Shown piece after piece: positions 128 to 12,802 of a stretch of DNA of 12,802 nucleotides. Source of the stretch: a virus. The number at the start of each line of letters is the position of its first letter. Within the stretch, counting starts at the first letter, position 1. The notes beneath the pieces are model-generated. The model was given only the letters and a program-made list of their open reading frames with translations. It searched no databases and was not told the origin of the DNA. A program made the translations under genes and the position numbers. The stretch lies in the IMG/VR virus record IMGVR_UViG_3300045970_001057. One strand, given 5' to 3'.

Positions 128-616
128 TCAATTTTGTGCAATTTCTGATATTTTTTTAAGTTTTTGCCTTCTTATTTCTTTAATGTTCTCTTCACTTTCA
201 AGCCATTCAACTTCAGATGTTTTTTTAAGTGATGAAAATTTAGTTCTCATAGTTCTTTTAACATGATCAAATTGAGAATTATCAAATCCAGATATTAACT
301 CTATTTCAGTTAATTCAATTTTAGACATACCATTAGTGTATCTATCTAATTCTTTGACATATAAAACACAGTTATATGGCTCACCTTTTAATCCTTTTTC
401 TTTATCTTCATGACTTAAAAGGTTTATTGAGTTTTCATAATAACCTCTTCTATTAGACAGATTTTTCAAATCTTCATAAGTTGATATTAAAGTTTTTGTT
501 TTTTGTAGGTTAGAATCTGTTTCTACATACTTTTTTTTCATCTTTAGATATAAAACAAGAAAGAGTATGCTTGTTGGTAAGCATACTCCTAAGGCTATTA
601 AAATCAAAATCGTCAT
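128..616 (-). CDS. Hypothetical membrane-anchored protein with an N-terminal hydrophobic helix (ILILIALGVCLPTSILFLVLYL) followed by a charged soluble domain
   Basis: 162-aa ORF with an ATG start and a TGA stop. It is the last gene of a co-oriented cluster with very short intergenic gaps. The N-terminal helix of about 22 residues is followed by KMKKK, a signal-anchor-like topology. Confidence 0.8.
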   Translation of the reverse strand: MTILILIALGVCLPTSILFLVLYLKMKKKYVETDSNLQKTKTLISTYEDLKNLSNRRGYYENSINLLSHEDKEKGLKGEPYNCVLYVKELDRYTNGMSKIELTEIELISGFDNSQFDHVKRTMRTKFSSLKKTSEVEWLESEENIKEIRRQKLKKISEIAQN

Positions 617-655: not shown

Positions 656-976
656 TTATTCAAGTTGTTTAATTTTTTCAAGCTTTAACTTTCTAATTTC
701 TCTTTGATCATAGAAGAAATCATAAAAATTTGGATGGGTTGGATTTTCACATCCCCACCCATCCAAATTTTTATTCAAATGAAACCTAAGACCACCAGTT
801 TCATCATAAATGTAAATATATTTATATGTATATGGCACAGAATAATCTAAGCTTGTGTCTTCAGTTTCTAAAATAAATTTGCTATATTCAACACCTACTT
901 TAAAATCAACATAAATTTTTTGACCTCCTGATCTAATAGGCTTTTTACATATGACTTTTGTGATAGGTATGTTCAT
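656..976 (-). CDS. Hypothetical protein, Tyr-rich, 106 aa
   Basis: ORF whose ATG overlaps the TAA of the upstream gene by 1 nt (TAATG at 974-978 on the minus strand). This is typical translational coupling. Confidence 0.75.
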   Translation of the reverse strand: MNIPITKVICKKPIRSGGQKIYVDFKVGVEYSKFILETEDTSLDYSVPYTYKYIYIYDETGGLRFHLNKNLDGWGCENPTHPNFYDFFYDQREIRKLKLEKIKQLE

Positions 977-1773
977 TAATAAATATATTTTGTGATTTTG
1001 AAATCTTTTTTATCCACGTTAATTGTTTCTTCTTCATTATCATCAAATACAAATTCGAGATAGTATTTAATTGGTGTTTCTTTTTTGAATTTGATGCTTT
1101 TTACAACATTTCCATTATAATTGTTGAAATTGTATTTACATATACCTTTTAATAAGACCGTGTTATTCTCAAATAAAACAGATAGTTTCTCTGGTGTAAA
1201 ATTATCAATCAATTCTTTCTGTTGTTCAAATTTAATTTCGCTCTCCAATTTAGATATTTCATTTCTATTTCTTGGAGTTCTATCTTGATGCATTAAACGA
1301 ACTTTTCTATCTTCACTGATGAATTTTTTAATAGCTGTGCAGATTTCACCTTTATTAATCAAATCTTCTTTTAATAGTGGAAAAAGATTTTCAACTTCCT
1401 TATTTTTTGGTGTATATCCACCTTCATATACAGTTTCATCTTTTTCAATTTCTTTCATTTCCATTAAGTCCATAATGTATTCCATTGGATGACCACCAAA
1501 TCCAAATCCACGACGACCAAATTTTGATTTTACTCTCTTTTTTAATTTAAGAATATCATCTTGCATTGTATATTCATAAGTATTGGAATCATCTTTAATG
1601 TCAACACAATTTCCATCATGACTAGCATTCTTGAAGTTATCATCTAACCACTTTTTAAAATTGTCACGATTTTCTTTTAAGAAAAGATCAGATTCCTTAT
1701 TTTCTTCAATTAAAAAGTTAATTCTTTCTCTTTTCAATTGGCTTTCATTTTTACTTGAGTTTAAATTTTTCAT
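976..1773 (-). CDS. Hypothetical protein, 265 aa, with a Gly-rich segment (FGRRGFGFGGHP) and no recognisable domain
   Basis: Long ORF with an ATG start. It lies 23 nt downstream of the endonuclease gene on the same strand. Confidence 0.8.
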   Translation of the reverse strand: MKNLNSSKNESQLKRERINFLIEENKESDLFLKENRDNFKKWLDDNFKNASHDGNCVDIKDDSNTYEYTMQDDILKLKKRVKSKFGRRGFGFGGHPMEYIMDLMEMKEIEKDETVYEGGYTPKNKEVENLFPLLKEDLINKGEICTAIKKFISEDRKVRLMHQDRTPRNRNEISKLESEIKFEQQKELIDNFTPEKLSVLFENNTVLLKGICKYNFNNYNGNVVKSIKFKKETPIKYYLEFVFDDNEEETINVDKKDFKITKYIY

Positions 1774-1796: not shown

Positions 1797-2558
1797 TTAA
1801 AAAGGCATTTCAACATTAGCATCAAATCCAACACTTTCTTTCATTCTGGCTTCAGCCATTTTCATTATCAATTGTAAATCTGAAAGTGAAGCATTGTTCA
1901 TAAGAGCACAAATACTTTCAACAATAGTTTTCAATTTTTCTTGATAAGATTGGAATTTATGATCAAAAAGTCCACGAATATAAGAACTTTGATCATCAAT
2001 TTCGTTTTCTACATCAAGAATGCTTTCACTCATATCAATAGCACAATTTCCTTTCATCATGATAGAGTTGAAACCAGTCTTAAAAACTAGGATTTTGTTG
2101 TTCTGACGACAAAGATTTTTAGCAGTTTTAATTGATTCATAATCTTGCTTCATTTGTTCTGCAAAAGGCTCACCATCAAAGAATCTAACATCAACAATGA
2201 CCCTATTTTCATCAACACAAACAATTAGGATTTTGTTTGTTTTGTCCCAAATGTTTGATTCAAAGAAATTAGGCTCAGAATTCAAATAAGAACTAATATT
2301 TGTGTCACCACCAGTTCTCATTTGACCATTTTTTTTATTAAAATGTACTTTGATTTCTTTAACTTCAAATAGACCTTTGAAGTCCATACCACGTTCATTT
2401 TTAGGTAATTCTCTATCAAGCAATAGAGCAATTAGGTTTTCAACAAAACCTGAGGCTTTAACATCAAGTTTCTTTTCTCTAAAAATACGAAAAGCCACAT
2501 CAAGGTTGATTCCTTTAAGTGGCTGAAGTTTTTCAATGATTTCGTTTGCGACTTTCAT
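1797..2558 (-). CDS. MutH/Sau3AI-family (PD-(D/E)xK) type II restriction-like endonuclease
   Basis: The N-terminal region aligns by eye with MutH. KASGFVENLIALLLD resembles the KGWVGQLLE helix. GMDFKGLFEVKEIKV carries the D...E-x-K catalytic triad at D59, E65 and K67, matching MutH PDF..LGVELKTIPV. The conserved promoter element lies 22 nt upstream of the ATG. Confidence 0.6.
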   Translation of the reverse strand: MKVANEIIEKLQPLKGINLDVAFRIFREKKLDVKASGFVENLIALLLDRELPKNERGMDFKGLFEVKEIKVHFNKKNGQMRTGGDTNISSYLNSEPNFFESNIWDKTNKILIVCVDENRVIVDVRFFDGEPFAEQMKQDYESIKTAKNLCRQNNKILVFKTGFNSIMMKGNCAIDMSESILDVENEIDDQSSYIRGLFDHKFQSYQEKLKTIVESICALMNNASLSDLQLIMKMAEARMKESVGFDANVEMPF

Positions 2559-2577: not shown

Positions 2578-2610
2578 GTACAAAGATACGGATAATATTT
2601 GATATATTAT
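2578..2610 (-). promoter_or_regulatory. Promoter. The gene-strand core is GTATCTTTGTAC, containing a -7-type box TATCTTTG, plus a conserved upstream block (TATATCAAAtatTaTCCG)
   Basis: The 12-mer GTACAAAGATAC lies at 2578-2589 on the plus strand. The gene's ATG at 2558 is 22 nt downstream of the box. The element recurs with the same geometry at four other gene starts. Confidence 0.6.
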
Positions 2611-3262: not shown

Positions 3263-3670
3263 TTATTTTGGTTCCTTATATGTCAAGCCACCAAACCTAT
3301 AATCGGTGGTTATTTTTAGTGCTGAACGTATAGATTCTGCTGTAAATTTGAAACCTTTACCATTTTCATCAACAGCATTTACTGGGAATTTTGGAGCTTT
3401 TGTATTAAGTTCGGTGATTGTGAAATTGACACCTCTGTTTGTGAAGGTTTTACCGATAATGTCTTCTGGCAAATTAAAAATTTGATAAATATAAGAGTCG
3501 TATTTTTTAACTGCATTTACAACTTCAACTTTCATCTTCATTGTGAAGTCATTTTCATTTAATGTTCCACCATTATTTTTAATGGTTACACCGTACTTTT
3601 TTGCGATGTTTTCTAATGCGATTTGTGATTCTTCTGCGATTTTCTTGGCTAAGTTTTTATCAAATGACAT
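3263..3670 (-). CDS. Hypothetical protein, 135 aa
   Basis: ORF with an ATG start. The conserved promoter element lies 28 nt upstream. Confidence 0.75.
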   Translation of the reverse strand: MSFDKNLAKKIAEESQIALENIAKKYGVTIKNNGGTLNENDFTMKMKVEVVNAVKKYDSYIYQIFNLPEDIIGKTFTNRGVNFTITELNTKAPKFPVNAVDENGKGFKFTAESIRSALKITTDYRFGGLTYKEPK

Positions 3671-3695: not shown

Positions 3696-3726
3696 GTACA
3701 AAGATAAGGAAAAATTTTGATATACC
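3696..3726 (-). promoter_or_regulatory. Promoter. The gene-strand sequence is TTTG-N19-TATCTTTG-TAC, preceded by the conserved upstream block
   Basis: GTACAAAGATAA lies at 3696-3707 on the plus strand. A TTTG sits 19 nt upstream of the box on the gene strand, spaced as a Bacteroidetes -33 element would be. The ATG at 3670 is 28 nt downstream. Confidence 0.6.
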
Positions 3727-3729
3727 AAA

Positions 3730-4314
3730 TTATTTGAAGATTTTTTCTTCAACTAATTCACAAATAATATGACCAATCATAATATGTGATTCTTGAATTC
3801 TTGGTGTGTCACTAGATGGAACATTTATTACATAATCAGATAATTCTTTTAATTTACCTCCATTTTCTCCAGTAAAGGCAACTGTTCTCATACCTCTACC
3901 CTTTGCAGTTTCAAAGGCTTTAATGATATTTGTAGAATTACCAGAAGTAGATAGACCTATTAGTATATCATCTTCCATACCCATTGCTTGCACAAGACGA
4001 GAGTATATTACATCATAAGAGTAGTCATTGGCAACTGAAGTTACATAAGATGTATTTACATGTAATGCTTCTGCATATAGTGGTGGTCTATCAAAATAAA
4101 ATCTACCAGATAGTTCAGCAGCAAGATGTTGAGCATCTGCGGCACTACCACCGTTACCACAAAAAAGAACTTTACCATTATAAAAATAACAATTATTAAT
4201 TAAACTCACTACATTTTCAATAGTTTTAATCAATCTATCATCAGAATAGATTAATTGTTTAACATCTATTGAGTTTTGAATTACATTTTTAATCTTTTGT
4301 TGTATAATGTCCAT
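3730..4314 (-). CDS. gmhA: D-sedoheptulose-7-phosphate isomerase (phosphoheptose isomerase, SIS domain)
   Basis: 194 aa. It aligns over its full length with GmhA (E. coli GmhA is 192 aa). Shared motifs are GKVLFCGNGGSAADAQHLAAEL, GLSTSGNS, TGENGG and RIQESHIMIGHIICE. Confidence 0.85.
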   Translation of the reverse strand: MDIIQQKIKNVIQNSIDVKQLIYSDDRLIKTIENVVSLINNCYFYNGKVLFCGNGGSAADAQHLAAELSGRFYFDRPPLYAEALHVNTSYVTSVANDYSYDVIYSRLVQAMGMEDDILIGLSTSGNSTNIIKAFETAKGRGMRTVAFTGENGGKLKELSDYVINVPSSDTPRIQESHIMIGHIICELVEEKIFK

Positions 4315-4447: not shown

Positions 4448-4753
4448 TTATAAATTATATTTTCTACGATCGTATTCTTCTTTTAATTCTTCGGCATATT
4501 TCCAAAAACTTTCTATCGGCACCCAATTTTCTTCTTCTTCTTTAAATTTTGTATATGTAGTTTCACCAACATGTCGTCTATCACCAGTTGACCAAATTCC
4601 TTTATCTTCAACATAATGTACAGAACCTTCGTTTATGAAGGTGACCCTATCTACCCAATGATATGATCTGTGAGCCGTTATGGTTTTATCAGCCTTTTTA
4701 TACCAATATCTACTACCAAATTCATTTAACCAATATGTTTTATCTTCTTCCAT
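4448..4753 (-). CDS. Hypothetical protein, 101 aa, Trp/Tyr-rich
   Basis: ORF with an ATG start. It lies 29 nt downstream of the 4783..5211 gene on the same strand. Confidence 0.75.
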   Translation of the reverse strand: MEEDKTYWLNEFGSRYWYKKADKTITAHRSYHWVDRVTFINEGSVHYVEDKGIWSTGDRRHVGETTYTKFKEEEENWVPIESFWKYAEELKEEYDRRKYNL

Positions 4754-4782
4754 ATCCTTTTTTCTTATATATCAGGTAAAAA

Positions 4783-5211
4783 TTATTTTGTTGACTTTTT
4801 TGTGTATTTCCTTTTTGGCTTTTCAACAACAGTTTCTGTTTTTTCTTTGTATATTTTAGCTGCTTTTTTTAATACTTTATTTGGTTTTGATGGAGTTGCT
4901 ATCGCATTAGCAAAAATAATTGCATCTTTTTCAGATACTAAAATTGTAGCATTTTTAGTTTTTGGTGCTGTAGCCTTTTTAGTTTTTGGTGTTGTAGTCT
5001 TTTCAACTTTAGGTTTTTTCTCAGCAACTTTATGGTACGGACGAAATTCTGTAATTCCTAATTCTTTAAGACATTCTGCACAATATATTGTGCTGTAATC
5101 ACGATCAGGTACATGTGCCACAAATAAATCTTTTGCATCAAAAAATTCAATACATCCTGAACAAACATGTTTTGTTGATTTTGTTTTTGCTACTTTTTTA
5201 GGATATGCCAT
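4783..5211 (-). CDS. Basic protein with an N-terminal CxxC...CxxC zinc ribbon and a Lys/Pro/Thr/Ala-rich histone H1-like tail. Putative nucleic-acid-binding protein
   Basis: HVCSGC and YCAEC are spaced about 27 residues apart. The C-terminal half contains KTTTPKTKKATAPKTKNAT-type repeats encoded by a 24-nt tandem repeat. The conserved promoter element lies 24 nt upstream. Confidence 0.7.
   Translation of the reverse strand: MAYPKKVAKTKSTKHVCSGCIEFFDAKDLFVAHVPDRDYSTIYCAECLKELGITEFRPYHKVAEKKPKVEKTTTPKTKKATAPKTKNATILVSEKDAIIFANAIATPSKPNKVLKKAAKIYKEKTETVVEKPKRKYTKKSTK
4946..5004. repeat. In-frame 24-nt tandem repeat, about 2.5 copies of GTAGCMTTTTTAGTTTTTGGTGYT, inside the basic-tail coding region
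   Basis: Copies lie at 4946-4969 and 4970-4993, with a partial copy at 4994-5004. They encode the PKTKKATA repeats of the minus-strand protein. Confidence 0.7.
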
Positions 5212-5232
5212 TTGTCTATATTTTTAATTAGA

Positions 5233-5244
5233 GTACAAAGATAC
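5233..5244 (-). promoter_or_regulatory. Promoter core GTATCTTTGTAC (gene strand) for the zinc-ribbon gene cluster
   Basis: GTACAAAGATAC lies at 5233-5244 on the plus strand. The ATG at 5211 is 24 nt downstream. The upstream block is less conserved than at the other copies. Confidence 0.55.
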
Positions 5245-5293
5245 TGCTTTTTATTCAAAAGAAAAAATTAATATATAATTAAAAAATAAAATT

Positions 5294-5827
5294 ATGGAAC
5301 TAATACCTAGCACTAAATTAAAGCCAGAAGACTTTGTTGGATTACTCTATCCTTTTGCAGAATCAACACAAAATGAAACTGGTATATCAGCAATAGCAAT
5401 TTTGGCACAAGCCGCACTAGAGAGTGGCTGGAATTCATCTTCACCAGGTTGGATGTTCTTTGGAGTTAAAGATACTGATGGAATTAATGGAAATGAACAA
5501 TTATTAACAACCACAGAATATAGTCGTAGAGCTGACTTAAAATTTCCTCAAATAATATCAGTAACACCAACAGTAAGAAATGGTCAAAAATATTTCAAAT
5601 ATGTTGTTAAAGACTATTTTAGAAAATATGAATCACCAGAAGAATGTTTTACTGATCATGCAAATTTTCTTATTAGAAATCCAAGATATTCTGCAGCATT
5701 AGAAGTTAAAGAAGATCCTATTGCATTTATAAATGCAATTGCAGTCGCAGGATATGCGACTGATCCAAATTACGCTAAAACACTTACATCTATTTGTAAT
5801 AGAATAAGTGGAATACTTAATTCATAA
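5294..5827 (+). CDS. Peptidoglycan hydrolase of the GH73 glucosaminidase family (mannosyl-glycoprotein endo-beta-N-acetylglucosaminidase domain). Candidate endolysin
   Basis: AQAALESGW matches the catalytic-Glu region of the FlgJ/AcmA type. GYATDPNYAKTL matches the C-terminal hallmark. The protein is 177 aa, consists of the single domain and has no signal peptide. Confidence 0.8.
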   Translation: MELIPSTKLKPEDFVGLLYPFAESTQNETGISAIAILAQAALESGWNSSSPGWMFFGVKDTDGINGNEQLLTTTEYSRRADLKFPQIISVTPTVRNGQKYFKYVVKDYFRKYESPEECFTDHANFLIRNPRYSAALEVKEDPIAFINAIAVAGYATDPNYAKTLTSICNRISGILNS

Positions 5828-5852
5828 AAAAAGTGGCAATTGCCACTTTTTT
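5827..5852. terminator. Bidirectional intrinsic terminator. It is a perfect 26-nt palindrome AAAAAAGTGGCAATTGCCACTTTTTT
   Basis: A GC-containing stem (GTGGC/GCCAC) is flanked by an A-run and a T-run. It sits in the 28-nt gap between the convergent genes ending at 5827 (+) and 5856 (-). Confidence 0.75.
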
Positions 5853-5855
5853 TAT

Positions 5856-6104
5856 CTACCGTGGATTTTCCTCCAGATAATTTTCAGGATAATTTTTACA
5901 ATCATAAGGATCAACACCAAGTATTTCTAATGTTTCATCTAATGAGTTTTTATCATGGCACAAATCTAATCTTTGATAGCCAGGTATTCCAAGTATAACA
6001 TAACCTTGGCATAGTTCATAACCAACATAATTCTTACCATCAACATGAGTGTATGGTCTTTTATTTACAAAAAAACCTGTGTTTAAATTAAAAATTTTAT
6101 TCAT
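5856..6104 (-). CDS. Hypothetical small Cys/Tyr-containing protein, 82 aa from the ATG at 6104. The ORF track extends it to a GTG at 6164
   Basis: An ATG at 6102-6104 leaves a 10-nt gap after the upstream gene's stop. The longer 102-aa version would need a GTG start and a 50-nt overlap with the upstream gene. Confidence 0.6.
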   Translation of the reverse strand: MNKIFNLNTGFFVNKRPYTHVDGKNYVGYELCQGYVILGIPGYQRLDLCHDKNSLDETLEILGVDPYDCKNYPENYLEENPR

Positions 6105-12287: not shown

Positions 12288-12802
12288 AGAAATTAAAATT
12301 ATTTGAAGATTTTTTATTAGAGTTTAAGTTGACAACTAACCCTATATCAGATATTAGCGAGTATATTGAAAAAATGAATAAAGGATTAGCGGATAAGTTA
12401 TTCTTTTTTAATAAAGTTGATATAGATACATTGGTTGATTTTGGATGTGCTGATGGCACATTATTAAAAGAGATTCACAAAATGAAACCAGATATGAATT
12501 TAATTGGTTATGATATTGATGATGATATGATTAAAATATCCACAACAAAATATCCAGAAATTAAATTTTATTCTGATTGGAATGATGTGCTACACAACGT
12601 AAATAATAACGCAGCAATATTATTATCATCTGTTATACACGAAGTTTATAGTTATGGCACATCAAGTGAAATTAGAAAATTTTGGAACGAACAAGTATTT
12701 AATAATAAGTTTAAGTATGTTATTATTAGAGATATGATACCTTCAACATCTTTTGATAAAATGAATTTGATTGATATTAAAAAGATAAGAGAAAAATCAG
12801 AT
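12284..12802 (+). CDS. Class I SAM-dependent methyltransferase, N-terminal 173 aa, truncated by the window edge
   Basis: The frame is open from the ATG at 12284 to the end of the window. Motif I is VDFGCADGTLL. An acidic beta-2 motif LIGYDID follows about 20 residues later, then a hydrophobic strand AAILLSSVIHEV. It is missing from the ORF track only because no stop codon falls inside the window. Confidence 0.6.
   Translation, partial: MKKLKLFEDFLLEFKLTTNPISDISEYIEKMNKGLADKLFFFNKVDIDTLVDFGCADGTLLKEIHKMKPDMNLIGYDIDDDMIKISTTKYPEIKFYSDWNDVLHNVNNNAAILLSSVIHEVYSYGTSSEIRKFWNEQVFNNKFKYVIIRDMIPSTSFDKMNLIDIKKIREKSD

Follow-up and report, generated by a model that had tools for sequence, protein, structure and literature searches.

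The stretch of DNA analysed here, referred to as the window, is a piece of 12,802 nucleotides (nt) from the virus record IMGVR_UViG_3300045970_001057 of IMG/VR. It is AT-rich (27% G+C), and from position 9911 down to position 1 nearly all of its genes run in the same direction, on the minus strand. The subject of this study is one of these genes, which encodes a protein of 253 amino acids (aa). A first reading of the letters without database searches, called here the sequence-only reading, had described it as a MutH/Sau3AI-like endonuclease heading a four-gene operon. From a predicted structure, transitive sequence evidence, a profile comparison with MutH and residue conservation, we conclude that the product is an intact PD-(D/E)XK nuclease with the MutH/Sau3AI fold. 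The features of the gene are listed below, with nucleotide positions in the window and residue numbers in the protein.

2578-2588, minus strand: TATCTTTGTAC, a Bacteroidota sigma-A type -7 box (TAnnTTTG) and putative promoter of the nuclease gene, 20 nt upstream of the ATG
1797-2558, minus strand: coding sequence of the predicted MutH-fold endonuclease, 253 aa, with an ATG start and the stop codon at 1797-1799
2430-2459, minus strand: helix KASGFVENLI with K34 and E40, probable counterparts of MutH K48 and E56 (low-confidence hhalign alignment, register uncertain by 1-4 residues)
2358-2384, minus strand: catalytic motif D59-x5-E65-x-K67 (DFKGLFEVK), from the translation, conservation and alignment by hhalign to MutH D70, E77 and K79
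2241-2258, minus strand: segment SNIWDK with the invariant K106, counterpart of the water-positioning lysine K116 of MutH (translation, aligned to MutH SHVRHK)
1800-1991, minus strand: C-terminal helices, residues 190-253; nothing in MutH corresponds to the final two helices and the tail
1800-1811, minus strand: tail E-M-P-F-COOH from the translation, with the family consensus [D/E/N]-[L/M]-x-F-COOH

Coding evidence, fold and active site

The 253-aa open reading frame (ORF) is a real gene under purifying selection. A search among 5.8 billion proteins returned nuclease homologues in 49 clusters at 54-100% identity, and the ratio of nonsynonymous to synonymous substitutions (dN/dS), computed pairwise for seven orthologues, was 0.06-0.25. 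Both the ORF and the D-x5-E-x-K motif that the sequence-only reading had placed in it are borne out. The pattern alone is weak evidence, because the 15 window proteins checked, with 3,518 aa in total, contain it two times.

Against Pfam MutH (PF02976) the window protein scored 13.2 bits (E 0.085), under the curated gathering cut-off of 23 bits. The PHROGs, NCBIfam and PADLOC libraries gave nothing significant for it, and phmmer searches of the PDB sequences with the protein and with profiles from two family alignments gave nothing useful. When 34 family members were scanned individually, 15 matched Pfam MutH at E<0.1 and no other Pfam family was matched by more than one of them; a distant member, P0073, reached 27.7 bits and was the only one to pass the cut-off. 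The significant MutH profile match that had been proposed as a check is therefore missing for the window protein itself and was reached by P0073.

The AlphaFold2 model, built on a 27-sequence alignment, had a mean predicted local distance difference test score (pLDDT) of 87.3 and a predicted template modelling score of 0.76. It has the three-dimensional fold of the MutH/Sau3AI group of PD-(D/E)XK enzymes, and Foldseek placed MutH on top (E 2.6e-6, probability 1.0), followed by NhoI, Sau3AI and DpnI. The hhalign comparison of the family with E. coli MutH (sequence from NC_000913.3) gave a pairwise E value of 0.002-0.004 with a low probability of 8-13%; among the matches listed, the relatives of E. 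coli MutH were all at least 83% identical and offered no diverse alignment for a stronger profile-profile test. At the level of the fold, the assignment to MutH/Sau3AI-like PD-(D/E)xK nucleases made from the letters has thus been confirmed by the model, with MutH and Sau3AI leading the structure search and the catalytic residues conserved.

The hhalign alignment pairs D59, E65, K67 and K106 of the nuclease with D70, E77, K79 and K116 of MutH, and DY at 139-140 with MutH DW at 157-158. The D...(D/E)xK triad is conserved in the homologues: G57, D59, F60, K67, G84, K106 and D123 are invariant down to 24% identity, position 65 is D or E in all 34 homologues over the same range, and E40, N102, K160 and S177 are at least 90% conserved in the family. 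Loss of the D/E/K positions in homologues, which had been named beforehand as evidence against the assignment, was not seen. K106 is invariant in both family alignments, the close and the wide one, and by alignment it is the clear counterpart of MutH K116, so that an equivalent of the extra catalytic lysine is present as well. The task of K116 in MutH is to hold the water in position for attack, and E56 contributes to the binding of metal B (bioRxiv 10.64898/2026.04.21.719898). E40 is the probable counterpart of E56, with the helix register uncertain. The conservation of D59, D/E65, K67 and K106 across the whole family speaks against a nuclease-dead DNA-binding protein, in which the MutH fold would act as a site-specific binder or effector in the manner of the C-terminal domain of Sau3AI, and we consider this the least probable of the explanations weighed here.

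Comparison with MutH, Sau3AI and viral MutH-fold proteins

MutH (PDB 2AOQ, 2AOR and 1AZO) falls into the same single-domain size class as the nuclease and shares with it the catalytic D...ExK and the extra lysine, and three pairs of similar motifs were found in MutH and the nuclease, namely SHVRHK/SNIWDK, REDWEEL/KQDYESI and LQIRPKAAN/LVFKTGFN. The two proteins nevertheless show only ~14% identity, and the match is limited to nuclease residues 1 to ~185, with the helical C-terminal extension and the ELxF tail being extra in the nuclease. MutL operates a latch of MutH that is formed by His112, His115, Glu68 and Lys66 (bioRxiv 10.64898/2026.04.21.719898); these residues align with N102, D105, G57 and E55 of the nuclease, which appears to lack the latch. 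Opposite the methyl sensor Tyr212 of MutH stand I180/L181, or M167 in an alternative register of this low-confidence region of the hhalign alignment, none of which is aromatic. Moreover, the nuclease has no link to MutS or MutL, and it is encoded by a phage with Bacteroidota-type signals rather than by a MutH-using bacterium. A MutH orthologue would be a chromosomal gene of a bacterium with MutS/MutL/Dam repair, and no relative of the nuclease was found in the bacterial and archaeal genomes of 185,579 species (one genome each), while the carriers are all phage-like contigs.

Sau3AI (PDB 4PXG, 7XM0 and 2REU) is a GATC-specific type II enzyme with two tandem MutH-like domains in ~465-490 aa and a cognate methyltransferase, whereas the nuclease has one MutH-like domain plus the helical extension in 253 aa and no adjacent methyltransferase. 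No second copy of the nuclease was found within ~10 kilobases (kb), and the two-domain architecture of Sau3AI is absent. For their activity MutH needs MutL and Sau3AI needs a second site (bioRxiv 10.64898/2026.04.21.719898). An orthologue of either MutH or Sau3AI was rejected on the single domain, the lack of MutL latch residues and the lack of an adjacent DNA methyltransferase in the inspected loci.

Among viral structures in BFVD, only two significant matches were obtained, A0A8F8X6W8 (503 aa; E 1.9e-6) and A0A7D5JWA5 of Synechococcus phage S-CAM7 (196 aa; E 4.8e-5). These are uncharacterised MutH-fold proteins of other lengths with 15-18% identity to the nuclease, and they are not family members by sequence. 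The MutH/Sau3AI-fold nuclease as a kind is known; what appears to be new, judging from the alignments and the model, is a phage-restricted branch with a helical extension and a hub-like tail, without the MutL latch or a methyltransferase partner.

The C-terminal extension and its Phe-ended tail

In the model, residues 190-243 of the nuclease form three helices, the first of which may match the C-terminal helix of MutH, and the tail that follows is predicted to be disordered because its pLDDT is 48-59. Of the 73 family members of at least 200 aa, 57 end in Phe, 55 have L or M at position -3 and 60 have E, D or N at position -4. Examples are ...NVEMPF in the window and ...GSELPF, ...EDNLPF, ...DDDLAF and ...EDDLEF in relatives, and the motif is still present in members of just 30-40% identity. 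Among 460 ORFs of the window and related loci, such a C-terminus was found in nuclease orthologues only.

The C-terminal hexapeptide DDDIPF of the single-stranded DNA (ssDNA)-binding protein SSB is a hub motif; it serves SSB as the docking point for more than 14 proteins of replication, repair and recombination (PMC5872125). At the family level the nuclease tail follows the same pattern, i.e., a disordered C-terminus with acidic residues, [I/L], P/x and F-COOH; a hydrophobic residue, any residue and the terminal Phe come after acidic or amide residues, and many family tails read DNLPF, SELPF or DDDLAF. The differences are that the SSB tail sits on an OB-fold ssDNA-binding protein and this one on a nuclease, and that its acidic run is short or absent, as in NVEMPF of the window. 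Clamp-binding peptides at protein C-termini are comparable devices, and so are the acidic tails of T7 gp2.5 and gp4, which end in Phe. We therefore describe the tail as a resemblance to the SSB hub only, and a clamp-binding type motif is an equally possible reading. A bolder proposal is that the [D/E]-L-x-F-COOH tail mimics the SSB C-terminal or clamp-binding hub peptide and would thereby bring a nickase of the MutH type to the replisome, of host or phage, or to the SSB interactome; we hold this to be improbable.

Promoter, carriers and host signals

The exact motif TATMTTTGTAC occurs four times in the window, in each case intergenic and 20-30 nt 5' of an ATG:

2578-2588, minus strand: copy ahead of the nuclease gene
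3696-3706, minus strand: second copy
5233-5243, minus strand: third copy
6496-6506, minus strand: fourth copy

A fifth, variant copy lies near 9924, ahead of a 57-aa gene. TAnnTTTG is the consensus of the sigma-A -7 box of Bacteroidetes (PMC9723704). The TATCTTTGT core is kept ~20-30 nt upstream of the nuclease gene in five related loci (L001, L003, L006, L009 and L012), although the upstream genes differ between the loci, and for this reason the nuclease gene is taken to head a transcription unit. The claim that it is the first gene of a promoter-driven cluster therefore holds, with the conserved box TATCTTTGTAC preceding the gene, and the promoter is of the Bacteroidota TAnnTTTG type and not of the sigma-70 type. 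Start codons in the window lack Shine-Dalgarno sequences, which is typical of Bacteroidetes (PMC6847099). Together, the TAnnTTTG-type motif and the lack of Shine-Dalgarno sequences point to a Bacteroidota host.

Two other candidate signals were discarded. A sigma-70 promoter was rejected, as the promoter and terminator scan returned 32 matches against 30.6 expected from shuffled sequences, and the only terminator-like hairpin lies inside the coding region of the 162-aa protein.

The nuclease family is small and confined to uncultivated huge phages with Bacteroidota-type expression signals. A full hidden Markov model scan of 1.84 billion cluster representatives yielded only 37 family representatives, and 50,697 deposited phage records contained no match, either to the protein by tblastn or to the window by megablast. 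The carriers are five IMG/VR viral contigs and, from metagenomes, contigs with phage-like content that measure 58, 97, 212 and 400 kb; the part inspected was ~20 kb per carrier genome. Huge phages of >634 kb have been predicted to infect Bacteroidetes (PMC7162821).

A further gene of the window also relates it to huge phages. The 802-aa vault-like protein (6751-9159, minus strand) matches the major vault protein shoulder (E 1.3e-26), the vault repeat and SPFH/Band-7, and all related loci have kept it, at 80-97%. ORFs of LR756500/1/3, uncultured huge phages of 462 and 735 kb that lack the nuclease, share 49-52% identity with it. None of the papers that we found describes a homologue of vault proteins as a gene conserved in huge phages.

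Downstream genes

Three genes follow the nuclease gene in the window, and they are as the sequence-only reading described them, namely a protein with the FGRRGFGFGG segment, a 106-aa protein and a membrane-anchored protein:

976-1773, minus strand: 265-aa protein (FGRRGFGFGG), downstream and probably co-transcribed, a variable accessory gene
656-976, minus strand: 106-aa protein, downstream; the downstream region was retrieved for five other lineages, and two of them have a clear homologue
128-616, minus strand: 162-aa protein with an N-terminal membrane anchor (Kyte-Doolittle 19-residue mean 2.78, residues 3-21)

Gene clustering across eight loci was used to compare the neighbourhoods. The order of genes downstream of the nuclease gene, with the identity of each nuclease to that of the window, is as follows:

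Window: 265-aa gene, 106-aa gene, 162-aa gene
L001 and L002 (97%): 106-aa homologue, then a 162-aa homologue split into ORFs of 91 and 66 aa; no 265-aa gene
L003-L005 (74%): 265-aa homologue (48% identity), then unrelated genes
L006 (73%): an 84-aa gene seen in no other locus, followed by 106-aa and 162-aa homologues
L011 (91%): 162-aa homologue directly downstream
L012 (65%): none of the 265-, 106- and 162-aa genes

The 265-aa gene is present in the window and L003-L005 only, being absent from L001/L002, L006, L011 and L012, and its homologue at 48% identity retains the GFGFG-HPM motif. Homologues of the 106-aa protein were found in L001/L002 and L006/L007, with a 58-aa fragment in L011, and those of the 162-aa protein in L001/L002 (split), L006 and L011. 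Neither the 265-aa nor the 106-aa protein had any family match. The split 162-aa homologue lies at 11130-11623 in L001 and at 2381-2874 in L002, and L006 additionally encodes a paralogue of the 162-aa protein with 37% identity (5692-6087).

These comparisons bear on the proposal of a four-gene defence or abortive-infection module, in which the nuclease would work together with the Gly-rich, the 106-aa and the membrane-anchored protein. The four genes are indeed co-directional and tightly spaced behind one promoter motif, and no further copy of the motif appears before the window end. Each of the lineages compared, however, has its own set of downstream genes. A relative at 97% identity lacks the 265-aa gene, L003-L005 and L012 have neither the 106-aa nor the 162-aa gene, and in L001/L002 the 162-aa gene is broken into two ORFs. 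Across the eight loci, no neighbour accompanies the nuclease gene throughout, and the upstream neighbours vary too. None of the four proteins matched a PADLOC defence model at E<=0.1 or had a significant Pfam or NCBIfam match, so that neither the conserved partnership nor the known defence model of an anti-phage or abortive-infection system was found. With downstream genes that change from one relative to the next, the four genes do not constitute a functional module, and we give this part of the sequence-only reading a very slim chance. The gene comparison indicates that the region is fluid and that its downstream genes are variable, interchangeable cargo rather than immunity proteins or obligate partners.

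Methyltransferases and GATC sites

The window contains one methyltransferase gene, which as described beforehand is ~10 kb away and on the other strand:

12282-12802, plus strand, running off the window end: partial class I S-adenosylmethionine-dependent methyltransferase with the motif VDFGCADG and sub-threshold matches to Methyltransf_31/23/12/25

It is of the generic class I type and matched no DNA-methylase family. No DNA-methylase Pfam family was matched by the scanned window proteins or by any gene of L001-L007, and within ~10 kb in 17 fetched loci no N6A/N4C-type motif (D/N/SPP[YFW]) was found except in an antisense ORF, while C5-type enzymes in L009-L013 were not screened. Both searches agree with the earlier statement that no DNA methyltransferase gene neighbours the nuclease gene, and the adjacent cognate methyltransferase of a type II restriction-modification system is missing. 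In P0073 the gene is directly followed by a 1165-aa fusion of T5orf172/MUG113, ResIII helicase and Eco57I-type methyltransferase domains (L014, 397-4629), which means that restriction-type contexts exist at the edge of the family.

The suggestion that the element itself might lack GATC did not stand. The window has 27 GATC sites, where its base composition predicts 31.5 and a second-order Markov model predicts 43 (observed/expected ratio, O/E, 0.62), and 70.5 kb pooled from four carrier loci have 138 sites against 167 and 226 expected (O/E 0.61). In the carriers the corresponding ratios of CATG, CTAG and ACGT are 0.50, 0.59 and 0.57, and LR756500, a related huge phage that lacks the nuclease, shows a GATC O/E of 0.63 over a 42-kb piece. 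GATC avoidance as a signature of self-targeting was rejected, since the ratio is similar to those of other palindromes and to that of the non-carrier phage.

For the reading of GATC by MutH, a role has been reported for K48, E91, F94, the 184-190 loop including R184, and Y212 (PMC10940147). K48, E91, F94 and R184 align in kind with K34, D85, I88 and K160 of the nuclease by hhalign, and D85 is invariant in the close nuclease family. These matches are compatible with a GATC-like site and do not prove GATC specificity.

A restriction role has to be weighed at this point. The nuclease could serve as the restriction enzyme in a restriction-modification or superinfection-exclusion system of the phage and cut unmodified incoming or host DNA at GATC, with a protecting methyltransferase or base modification encoded elsewhere in a genome of at least 200-400 kb. 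Sau3AI as the second-best structural match, the frequent GATC sites in phage DNA that would require self-protection, the methyltransferase fusion beside P0073 and the small inspected part of each carrier genome fit such a role. But no DNA methyltransferase was found near the gene in the searches described above, the single MutH domain, unlike the two domains of Sau3AI, predicts nicking and not double-strand cleavage, and PADLOC gave no match at E<=0.1. We regard the restriction role as unlikely.

Two other sites stood out in the window. TCGA is nearly absent, with 1 site against 13 (Markov) or 32 (composition) expected, and it is also depleted in L001; CCGG is absent from the window and likewise from L001. 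The more distant relatives L006 and L018 do not show the depletion of TCGA and CCGG. The TCGA counts suggest a lineage-specific avoidance of a TaqI-like (TCGA) host restriction enzyme.

Mobile genes and other genes of the window

L001, the 97%-related contig, carries a GIY-YIG/NUMOD homing-endonuclease-type gene beside its cREC gene (4521-5288), and since the window lacks this gene at the corresponding position, it is a mobile insertion polymorphism. In L002 (NCBI metagenome-assembled genome contig CAZFOC010000011.1), ~6 kb separate the nuclease gene from a TnpB/OrfB_IS605 (Cas12f-like) gene at 7805-9019.

The nuclease gene could likewise be a free-standing homing endonuclease gene, i.e., a selfish mobile gene whose product cuts nuclease-free alleles of related phages. 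PD-(D/E)XK homing endonucleases exist, the region is mosaic and has received the GIY-YIG/NUMOD gene nearby in L001, and the nuclease gene is absent from LR756500/1/3. On the other hand, purifying selection is strong by dN/dS, the regional position is kept across relatives down to 65-74% identity together with the gene's own conserved promoter, and a conserved partner-docking tail is not what a homing enzyme would be expected to show. We consider this explanation very unlikely.

The other genes of the window are of several kinds. The 119-aa protein (6115-6474, minus strand) has a cREC_REC (cyclic-phosphate processing receiver) domain (E 1.6e-23) and also matches PHROG 1479. The 194-aa SIS-domain protein (3730-4314, minus strand; SIS_2, E 6.7e-24) has the fold of GmhA-like sugar-phosphate isomerases and is conserved in relatives, and its gene may be an auxiliary metabolic gene. 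A glucosaminidase-type endolysin (5294-5827, plus strand) is encoded by the sole plus-strand gene within the long minus-strand array, and this gene is divergent from the promoter of a 142-aa gene. In the 135-aa protein (3263-3670, minus strand), the C-terminal part matches PHROG 497, which is annotated as HicB-like toxin-antitoxin (E 1.1e-6).

Proposed mechanism and biological meaning

The explanation that we favour, with a somewhat better than even chance on the model and the alignments, is a catalytically competent (predicted), single-domain endonuclease of the MutH/Sau3AI branch in huge phages, whose nicking would be gated or targeted through its tail. Transcription of the gene by the host RNA polymerase is probable because it is the first gene after a conserved host sigma-A type -7 box. 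Cleavage would depend on Mg2+, with D59, E65 and probably E40 binding the metals and with K67 and K106 positioning the attacking water. The primary product would be a nick 5' of a short specific site, rather than a double-strand cut, because a single-domain monomer has one active site. The sequence most likely to be targeted is GATC or one that resembles it, though we would still put this somewhat below an even chance.

The activity may be latent, or directed, until a partner binds the disordered [D/E]-L-x-F-COOH tail, which would act in the manner of the SSB C-terminus or of a clamp-binding peptide. We infer such gating because enzymes of the MutH family are latent until activated and because the GATC density of the phage DNA is normal; if the cutting of GATC were not gated, the DNA of the phage itself would be attacked too, barring its modification. 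The three downstream genes would be ordinary variable neighbours, and not partners of the nuclease. As to its role, we tentatively rank an early attack on the DNA of the host or of competitors, by nicks or cuts, slightly ahead of nicking coupled to replication or recombination at the replisome, and give each of the two less than an even chance.

Several observations weigh against tail-gated nicking at a GATC-like site. The window protein itself stays under every sequence-profile threshold, in Pfam, with the PDB profiles and in hhalign. The alignment of the C-terminal recognition half to MutH is of low confidence, and nothing aromatic is aligned with Tyr212. Cutting of unmodified GATC would need self-protection of the phage, and none was found in the DNA examined. 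The window tail NVEMPF is without the acidic run of SSB. The sign of early expression is the motif alone, and the same motif precedes several unrelated genes.

The MutH fold is known from the mismatch-repair nickase of a few proteobacteria and from Sau3AI-type restriction enzymes. The branch described in this study has been missed by Pfam, PHROGs, NCBIfam and PADLOC. If its specificity is GATC-like, the nuclease would be a compact natural nickase of biotechnological interest, and it would hint at an undetected self-protection of huge-phage DNA. If the tail is indeed a mimic of the hub peptide, the phage could nick DNA specifically at replication forks or ssDNA gaps, or rival the host SSB for its partners, and a new gating of a MutH-family nuclease would take the place of MutL. 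A hub-docking tail would also represent a new way to keep a latent site-specific nuclease off until it is rightly placed. A solitary, strongly conserved and phage-only branch suggests that giant phages have adopted the MutH fold for another task.

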